Source: Candidatus Eiseniibacteriota bacterium
GTDB taxonomy: Bacteria; Eisenbacteria; RBG-16-71-46
Assembly: GCA_963707915.1 (NCBI GenBank)
Contig: OY970178.1
Location: forward strand, 1,824,001 to 1,888,000
Direction of reading: 5' to 3'
Length of the DNA stretch: 64,000 bases
The notes under the pieces were generated by a model that searched no databases, had not been told where the DNA came from, and saw only the letters and a list, made by a program, of their open reading frames with translations. Numbering within the stretch: position 1 is the first letter of the stretch; every line of letters starts with the position of its first letter. This document shows positions 4,949 to 13,100 of this stretch, in pieces. Both the position numbers and the translations under genes were made by a program.

Positions 4949-4977
4949 TTGACGCTCCGCGCGGCCCTCCCTACTCT
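4949..4977 (+). promoter_or_regulatory. Sigma70-type promoter of ispG (probably leaderless transcript)
   Basis: TTGACG-N17-TACTCT, ending 7 nt before ATG 4985. Confidence 0.6.
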
Positions 4978-4984
4978 TCGCGAC

Positions 4985-6241
4985 ATGCCTCCCGTCCGCT
5001 TCGACGGCGCGCTCCCGGAGCGCCGTCCGACCGTCAGTTGCCGCGTGGGCGGCGTGCTCCTCGGCTCGGCGCACCCGGTGGTCGTGCAGTCGATGACCAA
5101 CACCGACACCGCCGACGCGGAGGCCACCGCCCGGCAGGCCGCCGAGCTCGCCGCCGCCGGCTCGGAGCTGGTCCGCATCACGGTCAACACGCGCGAGGCC
5201 GCGGCCGCCGTGCCCGGGATCCGCAGGCGCCTCGACGAGGCGGGCGAGCACGTGCCGCTGGTCGGCGACTTCCACTACAACGGGCACCAGCTCCTCGCGG
5301 AGTACCCGGAGTGCGCCCGCGCGCTGGACAAGTACCGCATCAACCCCGGCAACGTGGGCGTGGGCGACCGGCACGACGAGAACTTTCGCCGCATGATCGA
5401 GGCGGCGATCGAGCACGACCGGCCGGTGCGCATCGGGGTGAACTGGGGCTCGCTCGACCGCGCGCTGCTCACCGCGCTCATGGACGCGAACGCCGCCCGG
5501 CCGGTACCGCGTCCCGAGCGCGAGGTCATGCGGGAGGCCATCCGCGAGAGCGCCCTGCGCTCGGCCGAGCTGGCCGAGCGTTGCGGCCTCCCCCACGACC
5601 GCATCGTGCTCTCCGCCAAGGTGAGCGAAGTGGGCGACCTGGTCGCGGTCAATCGCGCGCTCGGCGCGGCCTGCGACTACCCCCTGCACCTCGGGCTGAC
5701 CGAGGCGGGGCCCGGCATCAAGGGCACGGTGGCGAGCGCCGCCGCGCTCTCGATCCTGCTCGCCGAGGGCATCGGCGACACCATCCGCGCGAGCCTCACC
5801 CCCACGCCGGGCGGAGACCGCGCCGACGAGGTGCGGATCTGCCAGCAGGTGCTCCAGTCACTCGGGATCCGCCGTTTCACCCCGCAGGTCAGCTCGTGCC
5901 CGGGCTGCGGCCGCACCACCAGCCTGGCCTTCCAGGAGCTGGCCGCGCGCATCAGCGCGCACCTCCACGCCCGCATCCCGCTCTGGCGCGCCACCTACCC
6001 GGGCGTCGAGACCCTGCGCGTCGCGGTGATGGGCTGCGTGGTCAACGGCCCCGGCGAGAGCCGGCACGCCGACATCGGCATCTCGCTGCCCGGCACGGCG
6101 GAGGACCCGCACGCGCCGGTCTTCGTGGACGGGAAGCTCGCGGCCACGCTCCAGGGCGGGCGCATCGCCGAGGACTTCGTGCGCATGCTCGACGAGTACG
6201 TCGAGCGGAGGTTCGGGGCGGGGGCGCAGGCCCGCGGCTGA
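4985..6241 (+). CDS. ispG: (E)-4-hydroxy-3-methylbut-2-enyl-diphosphate synthase
   Basis: [56 protein letters not shown] motifs. Confidence 0.97.
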
Positions 6242-7913: not shown

Positions 7914-9845
7914 TCAGCTCCCCCCGAGCCGCGCCAGCACGGCGCCCGCCAGCTGCGTGAGCGAGGGGTCCCGCGCCCCCATCACCAGCACGAGGTCGCC
8001 CGCCCGCGCCTCCGCGGCGATGCGCCCGACCAGCCACTCGCGCGAGGGCGCGAACTCGGCGGCCGCGCCCCGCGCGGCGATCTCGGCGGCGATCTCGGCG
8101 GCGGAGAAGTCGCGCGTGGCGCTGCCGCCCGCGTAGAACACCTCGAGCATCCAGAACCGGTCGGCGGGACGCAGCACGGAGGCGAAGGTCTCGACGAAGT
8201 CGCCCCGCAGGAACCGCGTCGGGCCGTAGCCGTGCGGCTGGTAGACCGCCAGCACCCGCCCGCCCACGGCGCGCGCCTGCGCCGTGGCCAGGGCCGCCGC
8301 GACCTTGGCCGGGTTGTGGGCGAAGTCGTCCACCACCTCGACTCCGCGCGCCGTGCCCAGCGACTGGAAGCGACGGCCCACCCCCTGGAAGCGCCCCAGC
8401 GGCGCGGCCGTCTCCGCGAGCGGGACCCCGACGGCGCGGCAGGCGGCGATCGCGGCCAGCGCGTTCTCGACGTTGTGGCGCCCGGGCACCGGCAGCGCGA
8501 AGCGCACGCCGTCCACGGTGAAGGCCGCTCCGCCCGGCCCCAGCTCGACGTCGGTGCCGCGCACCGCCGCGCCCGCGCCGAGGCCGAACACGGTCGCGCC
8601 GGCGGCGAGCCCGGCGAGGTTCGCGCCCTCCCCCACGACGAAGGACTCGCGGACGCGCCCGCGAAGCGTGCGGAACATCGCGGCCACCTCGTCCATCTCG
8701 CGGTGATCGCGCTGCAGGTTCAGCACCACGCCCACGGCGGGCTCGTAGCGCACGACCGAGCCGTCGCTCTCGTCGGCCTCGACCACCAGCAGGTCCGAGC
8801 GCCCGGCCCAGGCGTTCCCCCACAGCCCCTGCCGCTGCAGCATCACCAGGTCGCCGCCGGTGATCACCGAGGGATCGCGCCCGGCGCCGCGCAGGATCTC
8901 GAAGATCATCGCCACCACCGTGGACTTGCCGCTGGTGCCGGTGACCGCGATCGTGCGGTGGTCGGTGACGAAGCGCGCGAGCAGCTCCGAGCGGTGCACG
9001 ACGGGCACGCCGAGGCGGCGGGCAGCGGCACAATCCGGCACCTCGCGCTCGACCGCGGTCGACACCACGAGCGCATCCGCGCCCGCGACCCCGCTGCCGT
9101 CCTGGGCCGTCACCTGGATGCCCAGCCGCTCGAGCTGGGCGCGGGCCGGGGCGCGCTCGCCGCGGTCGAAGGCCCGGTCGCTGCCGCTCGCCGCGCCGCC
9201 GCGCATGACCTGGAACTGCGCCAGCGCGCTCATGCCGCTGCCGCCGAGCCCCGCGTAGTGGAAGCGCCCGCTCCGCCAGTCGGGCGGGGGCACCTCCGCG
9301 AGCACGGCCACCAGGTCGCCCTCGGCCACGCGGTCGAACAGCTCGATCACGGCCGCGTTCGCCATCCGTACGCAGCCGTGCGACGCGGGCTCGCCCAGCG
9401 CGTCCTCGCGGTTGGTGCCGTGCAGGTAGATGGTGCGCTCGAGCGAGTCGCAACCCGGGCCGCGGTTCACGCCGTCCTCGAGGCCCTCGAGCGTGATGAT
9501 GCGCGAGAGGATCAGGTCATCGTCGCGGGTATCGCCCCGCCACACCTCGCCGGTGGGCACGCGGCTCGCGAACACCGCGCCCGCGGGCTCGCCCGCGCCG
9601 ATCCGCGCGCGGACGCGGTGCAGGCCCGGCGGCGTGCGCAACGAGCCCGACTCGCCCCCGATGCCGGCGGCGGCGGTGGAGACCGGGTACTCGGCGAGGC
9701 CCTCGCCCTGCCGGTCGAGCAGCACGAGGCGCTGGCGCGGCACGTCCACCACGAGCAGGCGTCGCCACGGGCCGGGTGGCACGGGGACCCGTGCCAGCGC
9801 CGTGCGGAAGAGGACCCCGGCGCGCCGGGGGTCGGGAATCGGCAT
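7914..9845 (-). CDS. Fusion: YkuD-family L,D-transpeptidase/carboxypeptidase domain + MurC/Mpl-like Mur ligase
   Basis: N-terminal YPVST, TPPG, IYLHGT...SHGCVRM; C-terminal GLGGSGMSALA, GTSGKST, EADESD, DDFAHNP, QPHGYGP; one open frame; ATG 9845 chosen as start. Confidence 0.88.
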   Translation of the reverse strand: MPIPDPRRAGVLFRTALARVPVPPGPWRRLLVVDVPRQRLVLLDRQGEGLAEYPVSTAAAGIGGESGSLRTPPGLHRVRARIGAGEPAGAVFASRVPTGEVWRGDTRDDDLILSRIITLEGLEDGVNRGPGCDSLERTIYLHGTNREDALGEPASHGCVRMANAAVIELFDRVAEGDLVAVLAEVPPPDWRSGRFHYAGLGGSGMSALAQFQVMRGGAASGSDRAFDRGERAPARAQLERLGIQVTAQDGSGVAGADALVVSTAVEREVPDCAAARRLGVPVVHRSELLARFVTDHRTIAVTGTSGKSTVVAMIFEILRGAGRDPSVITGGDLVMLQRQGLWGNAWAGRSDLLVVEADESDGSVVRYEPAVGVVLNLQRDHREMDEVAAMFRTLRGRVRESFVVGEGANLAGLAAGATVFGLGAGAAVRGTDVELGPGGAAFTVDGVRFALPVPGRHNVENALAAIAACRAVGVPLAETAAPLGRFQGVGRRFQSLGTARGVEVVDDFAHNPAKVAAALATAQARAVGGRVLAVYQPHGYGPTRFLRGDFVETFASVLRPADRFWMLEVFYAGGSATRDFSAAEIAAEIAARGAAAEFAPSREWLVGRIAAEARAGDLVLVMGARDPSLTQLAGAVLARLGGS

Positions 9846-10144
9846 GGGGCCACTCTGCCACAACCGACCGGCAAAGCGAACGCGACCATGAGCGGGACCT
9901 GCCGCCGGGTCCGTTCCGAAATGGTTCTCTTCATCGGTACGCCCGAGTGGTAGTGTAACGCTCAGGAGACAGGGATCCGATCGTCGACTCGAGCCACGCG
10001 TTCCCCCGGCACCCTCTCGCCTGGAGCGGTCGACTGCATCGAGCCTCCTGATTCGCGGGTGTCGCGTCGGGAGACACCGGGCCTTCGAGAATCCCGTGAC
10101 GGCCCGCGTTCGATGAACGACATCGCACGAGCCTGGAGGTGCGA

Positions 10145-13100
10145 ATGTCCCCGACGAAACGCCACCGGACCATCCGGACCCAACTCGGCAGGTTGGTCCT
10201 GGTGGTCGCGCTTCCCCTGCTCGGACTCCTGACGCTCGCGATCGTCCTCGCCGCGCAGGAGGCTCGACGCGAGGCGCTGCGGTCGAGCCTGAGACTGGCC
10301 CAACTGGGGGCCGCGCAGGTCCACGGGACGCTGGACGAGGCCTGGGCGCTCCTCGACGAGATCGCGGGGCGGCCACTGGTGCGCGAGGCGCGGCGCGGGC
10401 GCTGCGATCCCGTCTTCGAGGGCCGCACGGCCCTGCCTCGATCGCTCGGCGGCATCCTGCTCGCCGCCCCGGACGGGACCCCGCTGTGCTCGACCACGCC
10501 CACCCAGGAGTCCGACCTCGTGCTCCCCGCCGTGACCGAGTGCCTGGCGCGGGCGCAGCGAAGCGGCCGCCTGGTCATCGGTCCGCCGTTCGTCGCCCGG
10601 GCCACGGGCGCGCGGGTCGTCCTGCTGGCCCGGCCCGTGCGCAACGATGCCGGACGAACCGTGGCGACGCTGGGGATCCTCCTTCGAGTCGATCGCTGGA
10701 CGCCACGCCTGACCGTCGCCGGACTCCCGGAGGGCGGCGCGATCACGGTGCTCGACGGCGAAGGAACGATCATCGCAAGCGTGCCGGATTCCGGGCGATG
10801 GGTGGGATTGGCGACGCGGAGCGCCGAAGTCTCGCGGCTCGCGCTCCGGAGCCGGGAAGGCGTGGGGGAAGTCCGTGGCCTCGATGGCATCGTACGTTTC
10901 TATGGCTACACGACCATCCACGAAGCCGGCTGGAGAGTCGTCGCCGGCGTGCCGCCGTTCTCGGTCCTGGCGCCCTACACCAGCCAGGCGCTCCGATTCG
11001 CGATCGTCTGCCTCGCCATCCTCGTCATCTCCGCCCTGTTCGCGCTCGACATCGGCCGCCGGATCGAGCGCCCGCTCCGCGCCCTGACGGCCACGGCGCG
11101 CGCGGTGGCCGACGGGAAGGCGGAAGCCCGGGCGACCGAGGAAGGCACGGCGGAGACCCGGGAGGTCGCCGCGCAATTCAACCGGATGCTCTCGACGCAG
11201 GAGGAGGCCAGGGTCGCCTTGCGCGCCCAGCTCGCGCTCTCGGAGGAGGCCCGACGCGAGACCAAGGCCATCCACGACCGCCAGACGGTGCTGCTCGAAC
11301 GCGTGACCGACGGCTTCGTGGCCCTGGACCCCGATTGGCGCATCACGTTCGCGAACGAGACGGCCGGGCGGTTGCTGGGCCGCAGCCCCCGCGACCTGGT
11401 CGGCAGGAACATCTGGACCGAGTTCCCCGGCACCGGGGTCCGGGGGGGCTTCCAGGAGGCCTGTCACCGTGCGCTCGAGCAGCAGGTCTCCGTGCGGTTC
11501 GAGGGGGAATACCTGGACTCGGGACGGTGGCTCGAGAACCGGATCTTCCCGTCTCCGGACGGCCTCACGATCTTCTTCGCCGATGTCACCGAGCGGAGGA
11601 GGGCGAACGCGGAACGCCTCGAGGCCGCCTCCCGGCTCCAGCTCGCCGTCCGCGCAGGGAACGTCGGCCTGTGGAGCTGGGACCTGCGCACCGACCACGT
11701 CTGGTACTCCCCGGAGTGGAAGTTACAGCTCGGGTACGGCGTCGACGAGATCACGAGCGAGTTCGGCGAATGGGAGACGCGCGTCCACCCCGACGACCTC
11801 GCCCGGGCCAGGGCCACCGTCGCCGCCTACCTGGCGGCCCCGCATCCGAACTACGAGCTCGAGTGCCGCCTGCGGCACCGCGACGGCACCTATCGCAGGA
11901 TCCTGGCCCGGGCCGAAGTGCTGAAGGACGCCGCGGGCAATCCCACGCACTTGCTCGGGTGCCACAGCGACGTCACCAGGCTCAGACAGGACGAGGAGAC
12001 CCTGCGCCGCGCGAACCGGGCCCTGCGCGTGCTCAACGCCTGCGACCAGGCGGTGGTGCGCGCCAGGACCGAAGCCGAGCTGCTGCCCGAAGTGTGCCGC
12101 ATCGTGCTGACCCTCGGCCGCTACGGGGTCGCGTGGATCTCCTTCGCGGTGCAGGACGAGGCGCGGACCGCGCGCGTCGTCGCCCGGGCCGGCGACCGAC
12201 AGGGCTATCTCGACGAGGTGAGCCTCACCTGGGCGGACACGCCGCTGGGGCGCGGGCCTACGGGCACGGCCATCCGCACCGGACGGCCCTGCGTCGTGCA
12301 CGGCATCGCGACGGATCCCGGTTACGCGCCCTGGCGCGCCGCCGCGGTCCAGAGCGGCCTGGTCTCGTCCATCGCGCTGCCGCTCGTCGCCGAAGGTCGG
12401 ACCCTGGGGGCACTGACGGTCTGTGCCACCGAGCCGGACGCCTTCGACGGGCAGGTGATCCGGCTCCTGACGGAGCTCGCGGACAACCTGGCCTTCGGCA
12501 TCACGGCGCTGCGCACGCGCGCGGAGCGCGAGAGGATCGCGAACGAACTCGGCGAGCGCAACCGCGAACTGACCAAGATCGGCGAGATCGTCGCCGCCAC
12601 CGCCACGAACCTCGACCTGCCGACCGCCCTCGACCGCGTCGTGCGCGGGGCCGTCGAGCTGACCGGCCTCGAGGGCGGCGCGATCTGCCTGCTGGATCCC
12701 GCGGGACGATCGCTCCGACTCGAGACCGAGTTCGACGATTCCCCCGAGGCGGTCCCCGAACTCGCCACCACCGGGATCGAGGTCGGCACGGGCCTGTGCG
12801 GAAGATGCGCGGTCGTCCGCGAGCCGATCATCACGTGGGACGACGCCTCCGGGCGTCGCGCCGCGGCCGGGGCGAAGGCCCCTCGCGCGGGCGTCCGATT
12901 CCACGCCGCCTTCCCCTTGATGGCCAAGGACCGTTGCATCGGCGTCCTGTGCGTCTTCGCGAGGGGCCCGGTGAAGCCGACCGAACGCAGCCTCCAGGTG
13001 GTGCGCGAGCTCTGCGGCCCGATCGGGCTGGTCATTGAGAACGCCCGGCTGTTCCGGACCGCGAACCGGGAACTGACCGAGCGCCGACAGGGGGAGGAAC

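Follow-up and report, generated by a model that had tools for sequence, protein, structure and literature searches.

In Acinetobacter baumannii, losing elsL does harm by way of Mpl, the ligase for murein peptides, and null mutations in mpl or ampG suppress the defects, according to the excerpts of the report that deal with these mutants (PMC8649774). Caulobacter and Agrobacterium, which are without Mpl and the L,D-carboxypeptidase LdcA, probably degrade the stem peptide and do not re-ligate it, as stated in the relevant portions of three further reports (PMC13046382, PMC9790009, PMC11980594). In this study, we describe a gene in a window of 64,000 nucleotides from a Candidatus Eiseniibacteriota bacterium (contig OY970178.1, positions 1,824,001 to 1,888,000) that joins an ElsL-like YkuD domain and a complete Mur ligase in one polypeptide. 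We consider the product to be a cytoplasmic two-enzyme polypeptide that would trim a stem tetrapeptide to the tripeptide and then re-ligate the tripeptide to UDP-MurNAc (UDP-N-acetylmuramic acid), and we assign this reading a probability of about 0.65. Both activities, their substrates and which step comes first are what we infer from the comparative evidence given below.

The open frame spans 7914..10376 on the minus strand, and the ATG at 9845 begins a stop-free translation of 643 residues. This start is supported by the homologues, which are 641-682 residues long among the matches listed. An initial annotation, made from the letters alone, had proposed a single uninterrupted frame of about 643 residues in which a YkuD domain at about 9770-9290 is followed by a full Mur ligase, and the four Pfam domains located in the translation bear out both the frame and the position of the YkuD domain (Table 1). 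Every motif that it quoted (HGT...SHGC, DDFAHNP and QPHGYGP) was located in the translation, and the catalytic motifs are intact. The N-terminus has no hydrophobic stretch, in agreement with the signal peptide and transmembrane segment reported as lacking from the compact YkuD domain. A leaderless N-terminus and a YkuD domain placed ahead of an ATP-dependent ligase are best read as marks of a cytoplasmic protein. Furthermore, an AlphaFold2 model of the whole chain, with 51 fused homologues as input, is confident throughout, with a mean predicted local distance difference test (pLDDT) of 92.1 and a predicted template modelling score (pTM) of 0.84.

The same four domains occur in 120 of 120 relatives (66-87% identity) among the matches listed. 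A locus survey in which each species was represented by a single genome gave at least 588 loci encoding the same kind of YkuD domain, and the best 80 were examined; their organism labels are Pseudomonadota (43, of which 20 are Methyloceanibacter), Candidatus Eiseniibacteriota (21), Acidobacteriota (12), Chloroflexota (1) and Actinomycetota (1), and two are unlabelled. One frame is kept in 71 of these 80 loci, 67 of them with the whole YkuD and ligase parts and four cut by the end of a contig. Another four consist of two adjacent genes, the ligase beginning 42-92 nucleotides past the YkuD stop codon, and both this stop codon and the spacer lie at the position of the linker; four have a frame break within the ligase part, and one stops directly after YkuD. 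A ligase is present at every one of the 80 loci with room for it, and stand-alone forms of the YkuD half, about 194 residues long, are common as well. Because the same architecture recurs across relatives and 71 of the 80 loci hold it in one frame, the fusion is no assembly accident. A stop or frameshift between the domains, which the initial annotation had named as one of the observations that would speak against its reading, takes the form of a split into adjacent genes at four of the 80 loci. Carriers of the fused gene include cultured strains, namely Holophaga foetida DSM 6591 and two species of Methyloceanibacter, M. superfactus and M. methanicus.

Judged by profile scores and identities, the YkuD half is nearer to ElsL than to the periplasmic L,D-transpeptidases, as the first reading had proposed from a short segment. 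The best YkuD-type model is the NCBIfam ElsL model NF040925 (129.7 bits, E 8e-38, model positions 9-158 of 164), and the next is LdtE at 20.1 bits. Identity to ten small leaderless ElsL-like open reading frames of Pseudomonadota is 38-54%, and the comparison with the sole other YkuD gene in the genome gives 21.9 bits. The score does not reach the curated cut-off of NF040925 (270 bits). However, the ElsL-like proteins of 61 Pseudomonadota genomes (33 genomes positive) score 119-188 bits, and none of them reaches 270; therefore, the cut-off is narrow and the curated model misses most of the family. His142, Gly143, Thr144, Ser155, Gly157 and Cys158 are invariant across the 51 fused homologues. 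A search of solved structures with the YkuD half returned no close relative, only weak L,D-transpeptidase (Ldt) matches of 21-30 bits, and a protein-atlas comparison returned just generic small YkuD clusters (score 0.90).

The ligase half scores 280.5 bits against the NCBIfam MurC model TIGR01082 (cut-off 335.1) and 129.5 bits against the Mpl model TIGR01081 (cut-off 388.7). A check for separate murC, ldcA and mpl genes, proposed at the outset, located the housekeeping murC as a gene of its own (C1:1207796-1209124, 528.6 bits) adjoining matches to other mur ligases, and profile searches of the genome found no Mpl above cut-off and no S66/LdcA. Five of five other fusion-bearing genomes likewise contain both the fusion and murC. 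The P-loop, EADESD and DH motifs are invariant in the 51 fused homologues. When 1.84 billion representative proteins were searched with the ligase half, the nearest relatives formed a large set of mostly stand-alone proteins of about 460 residues, not MurC proper, which are named MurC or "Mur ligase family protein" in their sources and come from Bacteroidota, Caulobacteraceae, Fibrobacter and others. We tested 65 of these relatives, of which 53 score below the MurC cut-off and 11 above it, and one has no family at E <= 1e-60. The ligase half appears to be a competent MurC-like enzyme that is neither the housekeeping MurC nor Mpl and belongs to a separate group, called here the AHNP/QPHG group after two of its motifs. 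The initial annotation had described an atypical MurC/Mpl-type ligase; the non-canonical motifs are confirmed, but the group is distinct from both MurC proper and Mpl. We found no description of a YkuD-Mur ligase fusion or of the AHNP/QPHG group in open-access PubMed Central papers and bioRxiv preprints. The Frankia murC2, a plant-like MurC according to the pertinent part of its report (PMC7231273), was set aside.

Two trees were used to place the ligase, a FastTree tree of 160 rows rooted on MurD and a more careful IQ-TREE tree of 60 rows. The FastTree tree has a branch of mur-cluster MurC (support 100; DDY[AG]HHP, QPHRY[ST]R), a branch of Mpl (support 100; DDFAHHP, EPRSNTMK) and a third branch of 141 AHNP/QPHG rows (support 90) that takes in all of the representatives as well as all fused and all split forms. 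According to IQ-TREE, the MurC clade (13 rows, 98) and the Mpl clade (100) exclude all AHNP/QPHG sequences. The AHNP/QPHG family as a single clade is a claim that we dropped, despite the FastTree support of 90, because the IQ-TREE backbone is unresolved. The YkuD-linked ligases fall into two separate IQ-TREE clades (94 and 100), and all S66-adjacent ligases fall into one (100). The second of the YkuD-linked clades (P0244, L131 and P0270; 100) holds YkuD-fused ligases that are 43-46% identical to the window protein together with a stand-alone member labelled Fibrobacter, so that either fusion happened a second time or a loss occurred. The Methyloceanibacter fusion nests within the Eisenbacteria fusions (98), yet murC in the same genomes is widely diverged, and this suggests that the fusion module was transferred between phyla. 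Three sequences (L157, L161 and L189) have a mixed signature, DDYAHNP with QPHR[FY][ST]R; since the tree places L157 with MurC proper, the Asn alone is no marker of the AHNP/QPHG group.

The carboxypeptidase beside the ligase is not always of the YkuD type. A search of the 61 Pseudomonadota genomes with the group profile found stand-alone ligases in three, and in all three a complete, divergent S66 L,D-carboxypeptidase gene lies 105-214 nucleotides away, the remaining neighbourhood differs and no ElsL-like protein is present. A metagenome scan yielded 25 group loci, of which 20 have enough upstream sequence to be judged: a divergent S66 gene is directly upstream in 10, several of these loci being related to one another, YkuD is fused or adjacent in three, and neither is found in seven. 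The ligase is thus coupled to two unrelated carboxypeptidase families. Several single loci were recorded alongside. One stand-alone group ligase with no adjoining carboxypeptidase (L147:742-5372) lies between the genes of an SLT lytic transglycosylase and an APH-family kinase, which is a different cell-wall recycling context; AmgK, the MurNAc kinase, belongs to the same Pfam family. Another (L136:3-2642) directly follows asd and dapB of the diaminopimelate pathway. Beside a ligase of the S66-adjacent clade lies a 31-residue S66-like remnant (L133:2963-3055), which looks like the decay of a partner gene.

Occurrence across genomes gives the same pairing on a larger scale. Among 121 genomes of the window's own phylum, Mpl occurs in none, the AHNP/QPHG ligase in 78, an ElsL-like YkuD in 48 and S66 in 43. 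The 78 ligase genomes have YkuD only (43), S66 only (34) or both (1), and none lacks a carboxypeptidase; 31 of the 121 genomes have neither ligase nor carboxypeptidase. With the unpublished genome G080 left out, the own-phylum table of ligase with carboxypeptidase, ligase without, carboxypeptidase without ligase, and neither reads 77/0/12/31. Whole families are of a single type, either YkuD (f1, f3, f5, f15, f16) or S66 (f2, f7, f8, f10, f14), and others have neither (f4, f6, f9, f11, f12, f13, f17). Genome G183 of family f10 is the sole sampled genome of the phylum with an ElsL-like YkuD, an S66 and a group ligase. For the 61 Pseudomonadota genomes, the score bands are 491-621 bits for the group (4 genomes), 302-347 for MurC (61) and 169-220 for Mpl (41). 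All four group-bearing genomes, one with the Methyloceanibacter fusion and three with stand-alone ligases, are among the 20 that are Mpl-less (Fisher p = 0.009, kinship ignored), and all four have a canonical murC. The ElsL-like proteins of the 33 positive genomes accompany Mpl in 31, the fusion in one and neither in one (p = 1e-6, kinship ignored). The group ligase and Mpl are mutually exclusive in the genomes sampled. Taken together, the patterns of Pseudomonadota and of the own phylum indicate that all four pairings of trimmer and ligase exist, with an LdcA or ElsL type beside either Mpl or the group ligase. The recycling role that the initial annotation had proposed for this family of MurC paralogues gains independent comparative support from the S66 pairing, the co-occurrence with carboxypeptidases and the exclusion of Mpl.

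According to our preferred reading, the ElsL-like YkuD domain, with Cys158 as its catalytic residue, would act as an L,D-carboxypeptidase on the stem tetrapeptide, the ATP-dependent ligase half would join the tripeptide so produced to UDP-MurNAc, as Mpl does, and MurF would go on to finish the pentapeptide precursor. Being fused or tightly linked would keep the ligase from being inherited or expressed without its trimming partner. Such linkage makes sense because ligation of an untrimmed tetrapeptide would be harmful and yield a dead-end precursor. The comparative data favour the proposed coupling of tetrapeptide trimming to re-ligation. The host genome encodes AnmK (349 bits) and one glycoside hydrolase family 3 (GH3) NagZ-like enzyme (209 bits), and periplasmic amidases with a peptide importer are one route by which free peptides could arise.

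The same two activities could also work in the opposite order. The ligase would then attach any stem peptide, including the tetrapeptide, and the tethered YkuD domain would trim UDP-MurNAc-tetrapeptide as an on-enzyme proofreader. E. coli LdcA acts on UDP-MurNAc-tetrapeptide too. Moreover, Mpl takes tetra- and pentapeptides, although less efficiently, according to the relevant passages of Das 2011 (PMC3060825), and a confident single-chain model would be compatible with a fixed hand-over of product from site to site. However, the S66 partners in the own phylum are unlinked to the ligase, which suits a free-peptide pool equally well, and the substrate range of ElsL is stated as undetermined in the excerpts of the A. 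baumannii report (PMC8649774). We regard this order as a possible but doubtful alternative to trimming before ligation.

[quoted passage not shown] MurC is the best match of the ligase half both by family and by fold: the model superposes on the substrate-bound Haemophilus influenzae MurC (HiMurC) 1p3d with a template modelling (TM) score of 0.87-0.88 and a root-mean-square deviation of 2.4-2.5 Å, and the match to Mpl 3hn7 is weaker (TM 0.67). When 150 AHNP/QPHG group members were compared with 27 MurC and 12 Mpl sequences, 49 positions were conserved and identical between the group and MurC, and 10 were conserved in both yet different. Six of these ten are in the C-terminal domain: N511 (H), K514 (E), G539 (R), P542 (R), G574 (E) and R625 (G), with the MurC residue in brackets. 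Residue 511 is Asn in 99% of the group members and His in all 27 MurC sequences; DD[FY]AHNP, QPHG[YF]xP, K514, G574 and R625 are each conserved in 99-100% of the 150 members, and the fusion protein has all of them. The residues of HiMurC that bind L-Ala are Tyr346, His348, His376, Arg377 and Arg380, as listed in the part of Das 2011 that describes the site (PMC3060825). The corresponding residues of the fusion protein, mapped by motif and not by an alignment with HiMurC, are Phe, His, His, Gly539 and Pro542, and the Arg377 and Arg380 positions in Mpl are Ser and Met. These family-wide substitutions at L-Ala-binding positions, the position of the ligase outside the MurC clade (98) and the canonical murC that is always present too (in the host, in the other five fusion genomes and in the four Pseudomonadota genomes) argue against an isozyme. 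In addition, coupling to two L,D-carboxypeptidase families with no relation to each other, seen in 78 of 78 genomes, is not what one would expect of a spare MurC. Although the 11 of 65 stand-alone relatives above the MurC cut-off and the 49 shared positions favour it, a spare L-Ala ligase is unlikely.

The N-terminal domain, with 15 positions conserved and identical to MurC, also carries group-specific changes at Q248 and D249 (G and H in MurC) and L208, and the P-loop has S305 (H in MurC). These changes would fit a ligase that uses an acceptor other than UDP-MurNAc, or a different peptide such as a tripeptide of another polymer, in a pathway outside murein recycling; the Mur-ligase fold has been put to use on other substrates, and the NCBIfam matches include cyanophycin synthetase, FolC and CfbE. 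However, the glycine-rich motif and the SGSD motif of this domain are common to MurC, and the model of the entire chain superposes on MurC in complex with UDP-MurNAc-Ala. To our knowledge, the murein tetrapeptide is the only substrate common to ElsL-type and LdcA-type enzymes, and we consider another acceptor or peptide very improbable. That the YkuD half is a cytoplasmic L,D-transpeptidase exchanging the fourth stem-peptide residue, as the definition of its Pfam family by transpeptidases with the same catalytic motif might suggest, is hardly credible given the gap between the ElsL score and that of the best Ldt model (129.7 versus 20.1 bits) and the sister lineages that have S66 enzymes, which are hydrolases, in the place of YkuD beside the ligase.

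Several observations weigh against trimming followed by Mpl-like re-ligation. The ligase half is nearer to MurC than to Mpl in both score and fold, and the 11 stand-alone relatives above the NCBIfam MurC cut-off make L-Ala ligation compatible with the sequence. True MurC enzymes have Thr (the Roseburia enzyme) or Leu (the M. bovis enzyme) at the Arg377 position in the alignments; these two solved MurCs weaken the argument that Gly in place of Arg377 proves a new substrate, and the six changes of the C-terminal domain are used in its place. The IQ-TREE backbone among the AHNP/QPHG sequences does not show a single origin for them, and the S66 linkage, given that its ligases form one clade, may itself have arisen only once. 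Seven of the 20 judgeable metagenome loci have no adjoining carboxypeptidase, and in the S66-type genomes of the own phylum, the S66 and ligase genes are not adjacent. Twelve genomes of the phylum have a carboxypeptidase and no ligase above the threshold, some of them cut at contig ends. The Fisher tests ignore phylogeny, and most of the genomes are metagenome bins. In the host genome, the AmpG-like permease (179 bits) is below its cut-off, and a profile search found no AmpD-type Amidase_2. One of the seven metagenome loci with no adjoining carboxypeptidase, a long-branched group member on a gut contig (L162:671-4518), directly follows a penicillin-binding protein (PBP) transpeptidase gene, a position like that of a ligase of the division and cell wall (dcw) cluster, and is a possible counter-example to a recycling role.

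On balance, we lean slightly towards a broader interpretation, in which the AHNP/QPHG proteins would be a third, so far unrecognised family of UDP-MurNAc:murein-peptide ligases, non-orthologous to Mpl and always accompanied by an L,D-carboxypeptidase, either YkuD (fused or adjacent) or S66. Such a family would provide a route of stem-peptide re-use in lineages that are currently presumed, for want of Mpl, to degrade the peptide: in Eiseniibacteriota, in Holophagae and other Acidobacteriota, in some Alphaproteobacteria, and probably in Bacteroidota and Fibrobacter, and the fusion would have moved between phyla as a self-contained module. If the group does the job of Mpl, the direct re-use of peptides is far more widespread than has been supposed, since the ligase is present in 78 of 121 genomes of a phylum in which Mpl was found in none, which points to cell-wall recycling by a route not recognised so far, in bacteria believed to have none. 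In that case, the name "MurC" or "L,D-transpeptidase family protein" would be wrong for thousands of entries in the databases. As a natural connection of the two steps, the fusion also illustrates their need to stay together, because a ligase without its trimmer would produce dead-end precursors. The hypothesis lends itself to direct testing, as there are cultured strains with the fused gene and a reporter strain of E. coli K-12 has already been made.

The genes around the fusion gene are listed with its own features in Table 1. The CitMHS/ArsB-type permease gene and the fusion gene are probably co-transcribed; the permease as a conserved peptide importer of the operon was rejected, as it adjoins the fusion gene at none of the 80 related loci. 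The first codons of the divergent histidine kinase gene overlap the spurious upstream extension of the fusion open frame. The 12 loci with an IspG/GcpE homologue nearby are all labelled Eisenbacteria or unlabelled. Five distant fusion loci have no common neighbour beyond YkuD and the ligase.

Table 1. Features of the YkuD-Mur ligase fusion gene and its neighbours, in positions of the window.
Feature	Position	Strand	Basis or remark
Fusion gene, YkuD-Mur ligase, 643 aa	7914..9845	-	Open frame and Pfam; stop codon 7914-7916
YkuD domain, residues 29-181, ElsL-like, predicted L,D-carboxypeptidase	9303..9761	-	Pfam PF03734, 78.3 bits (cut-off 23.4); NCBIfam NF040925
YkuD active-site motifs	9372..9422	-	HGTN, residues 142-145 (9411-9422); SHGC, residues 155-158, with catalytic Cys158 (9372-9383)
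Linker between YkuD and ligase, residues 182-194	9264..9302	-	Gap between Pfam domains
Mur ligase N-terminal (nucleotide-sugar binding) domain, residues 195-295	8961..9263	-	Pfam PF01225
Mur ligase middle (ATP-binding) domain, residues 301-469	8439..8945	-	Pfam PF08245
P-loop GTSGKS, residues 303-308	8922-8939	-	Motif in middle domain
EADESD motif	8763-8780	-	Middle domain
Mur ligase C-terminal (incoming amino-acid/peptide) domain, residues 491-625	7971..8375	-	Pfam PF02875
DDFAHNP motif, residues 506-512	8310..8330	-	MurC: DDY[AG]HHP; Mpl: DDFAHHP
QPHGYGP motif, residues 536-542	8220..8240	-	MurC: QPHRY[ST]R; Mpl: EPRSNTM
MGARDP motif	7965..7982	-	Arg625 in place of Gly in GAGD of MurC
CitMHS/ArsB-type permease, 415 aa	6662-7909	-	Start 4 nt past fusion stop codon
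Sensor histidine kinase, 1223 aa	10139-13810	+	dCache, HAMP, PAS x2-3, GAF x2-3, HisKA, HATPase; divergent from fusion gene
IspG/GcpE	4949-6241	+	Homologue within a few kb of fusion gene in 12/80 loci

Compared with ElsL (LdtK) of A. baumannii (NF040925; mBio 2021, PMC8649774), the YkuD half is alike in being compact and leaderless, in its His/Cys site, in its near end-to-end alignment and in its genomic tie to a murein peptide ligase; it differs in being covalently joined to that ligase, in that the ligase is not Mpl, and in scoring 129.7 bits, below the 270 of the model. The ligase half resembles Mpl in its proposed reaction, in being a three-domain Mur ligase related to MurC, in having lost both L-Ala-binding arginines and in its functional dependence on an L,D-carboxypeptidase. 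However, it is no orthologue of Mpl (129.5 versus 388.7 bits), lies outside the Mpl clade (100), has QPHGYGP in place of EPRSNTM, superposes at a TM score of 0.67, and belongs to a group whose occurrence and that of Mpl are mutually exclusive. MurC (TIGR01082; 1p3d, 7bva) is the nearest family by sequence and fold, with the nucleotide and ATP motifs in common, whereas the fusion ligase is below its cut-off, outside the dcw cluster and the MurC clade, found alongside a true MurC, and changed in the amino-acid pocket. LdcA (Peptidase_S66) is the alternative partner of the ligase group, adjacent or co-occurring, and presumably performs the same trimming step; it is a serine peptidase of unrelated fold, no fusion of it to the ligase was seen, and it was not found in the host genome. 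The MurC-Ddl fusion (NF011171) has a D-Ala-D-Ala ligase at its C-terminus and serves de novo synthesis, and the fusion protein scores 168.9 bits against its cut-off of 1015, but it is alike in being a natural fusion of a MurC-type ligase with a second cell-wall enzyme.

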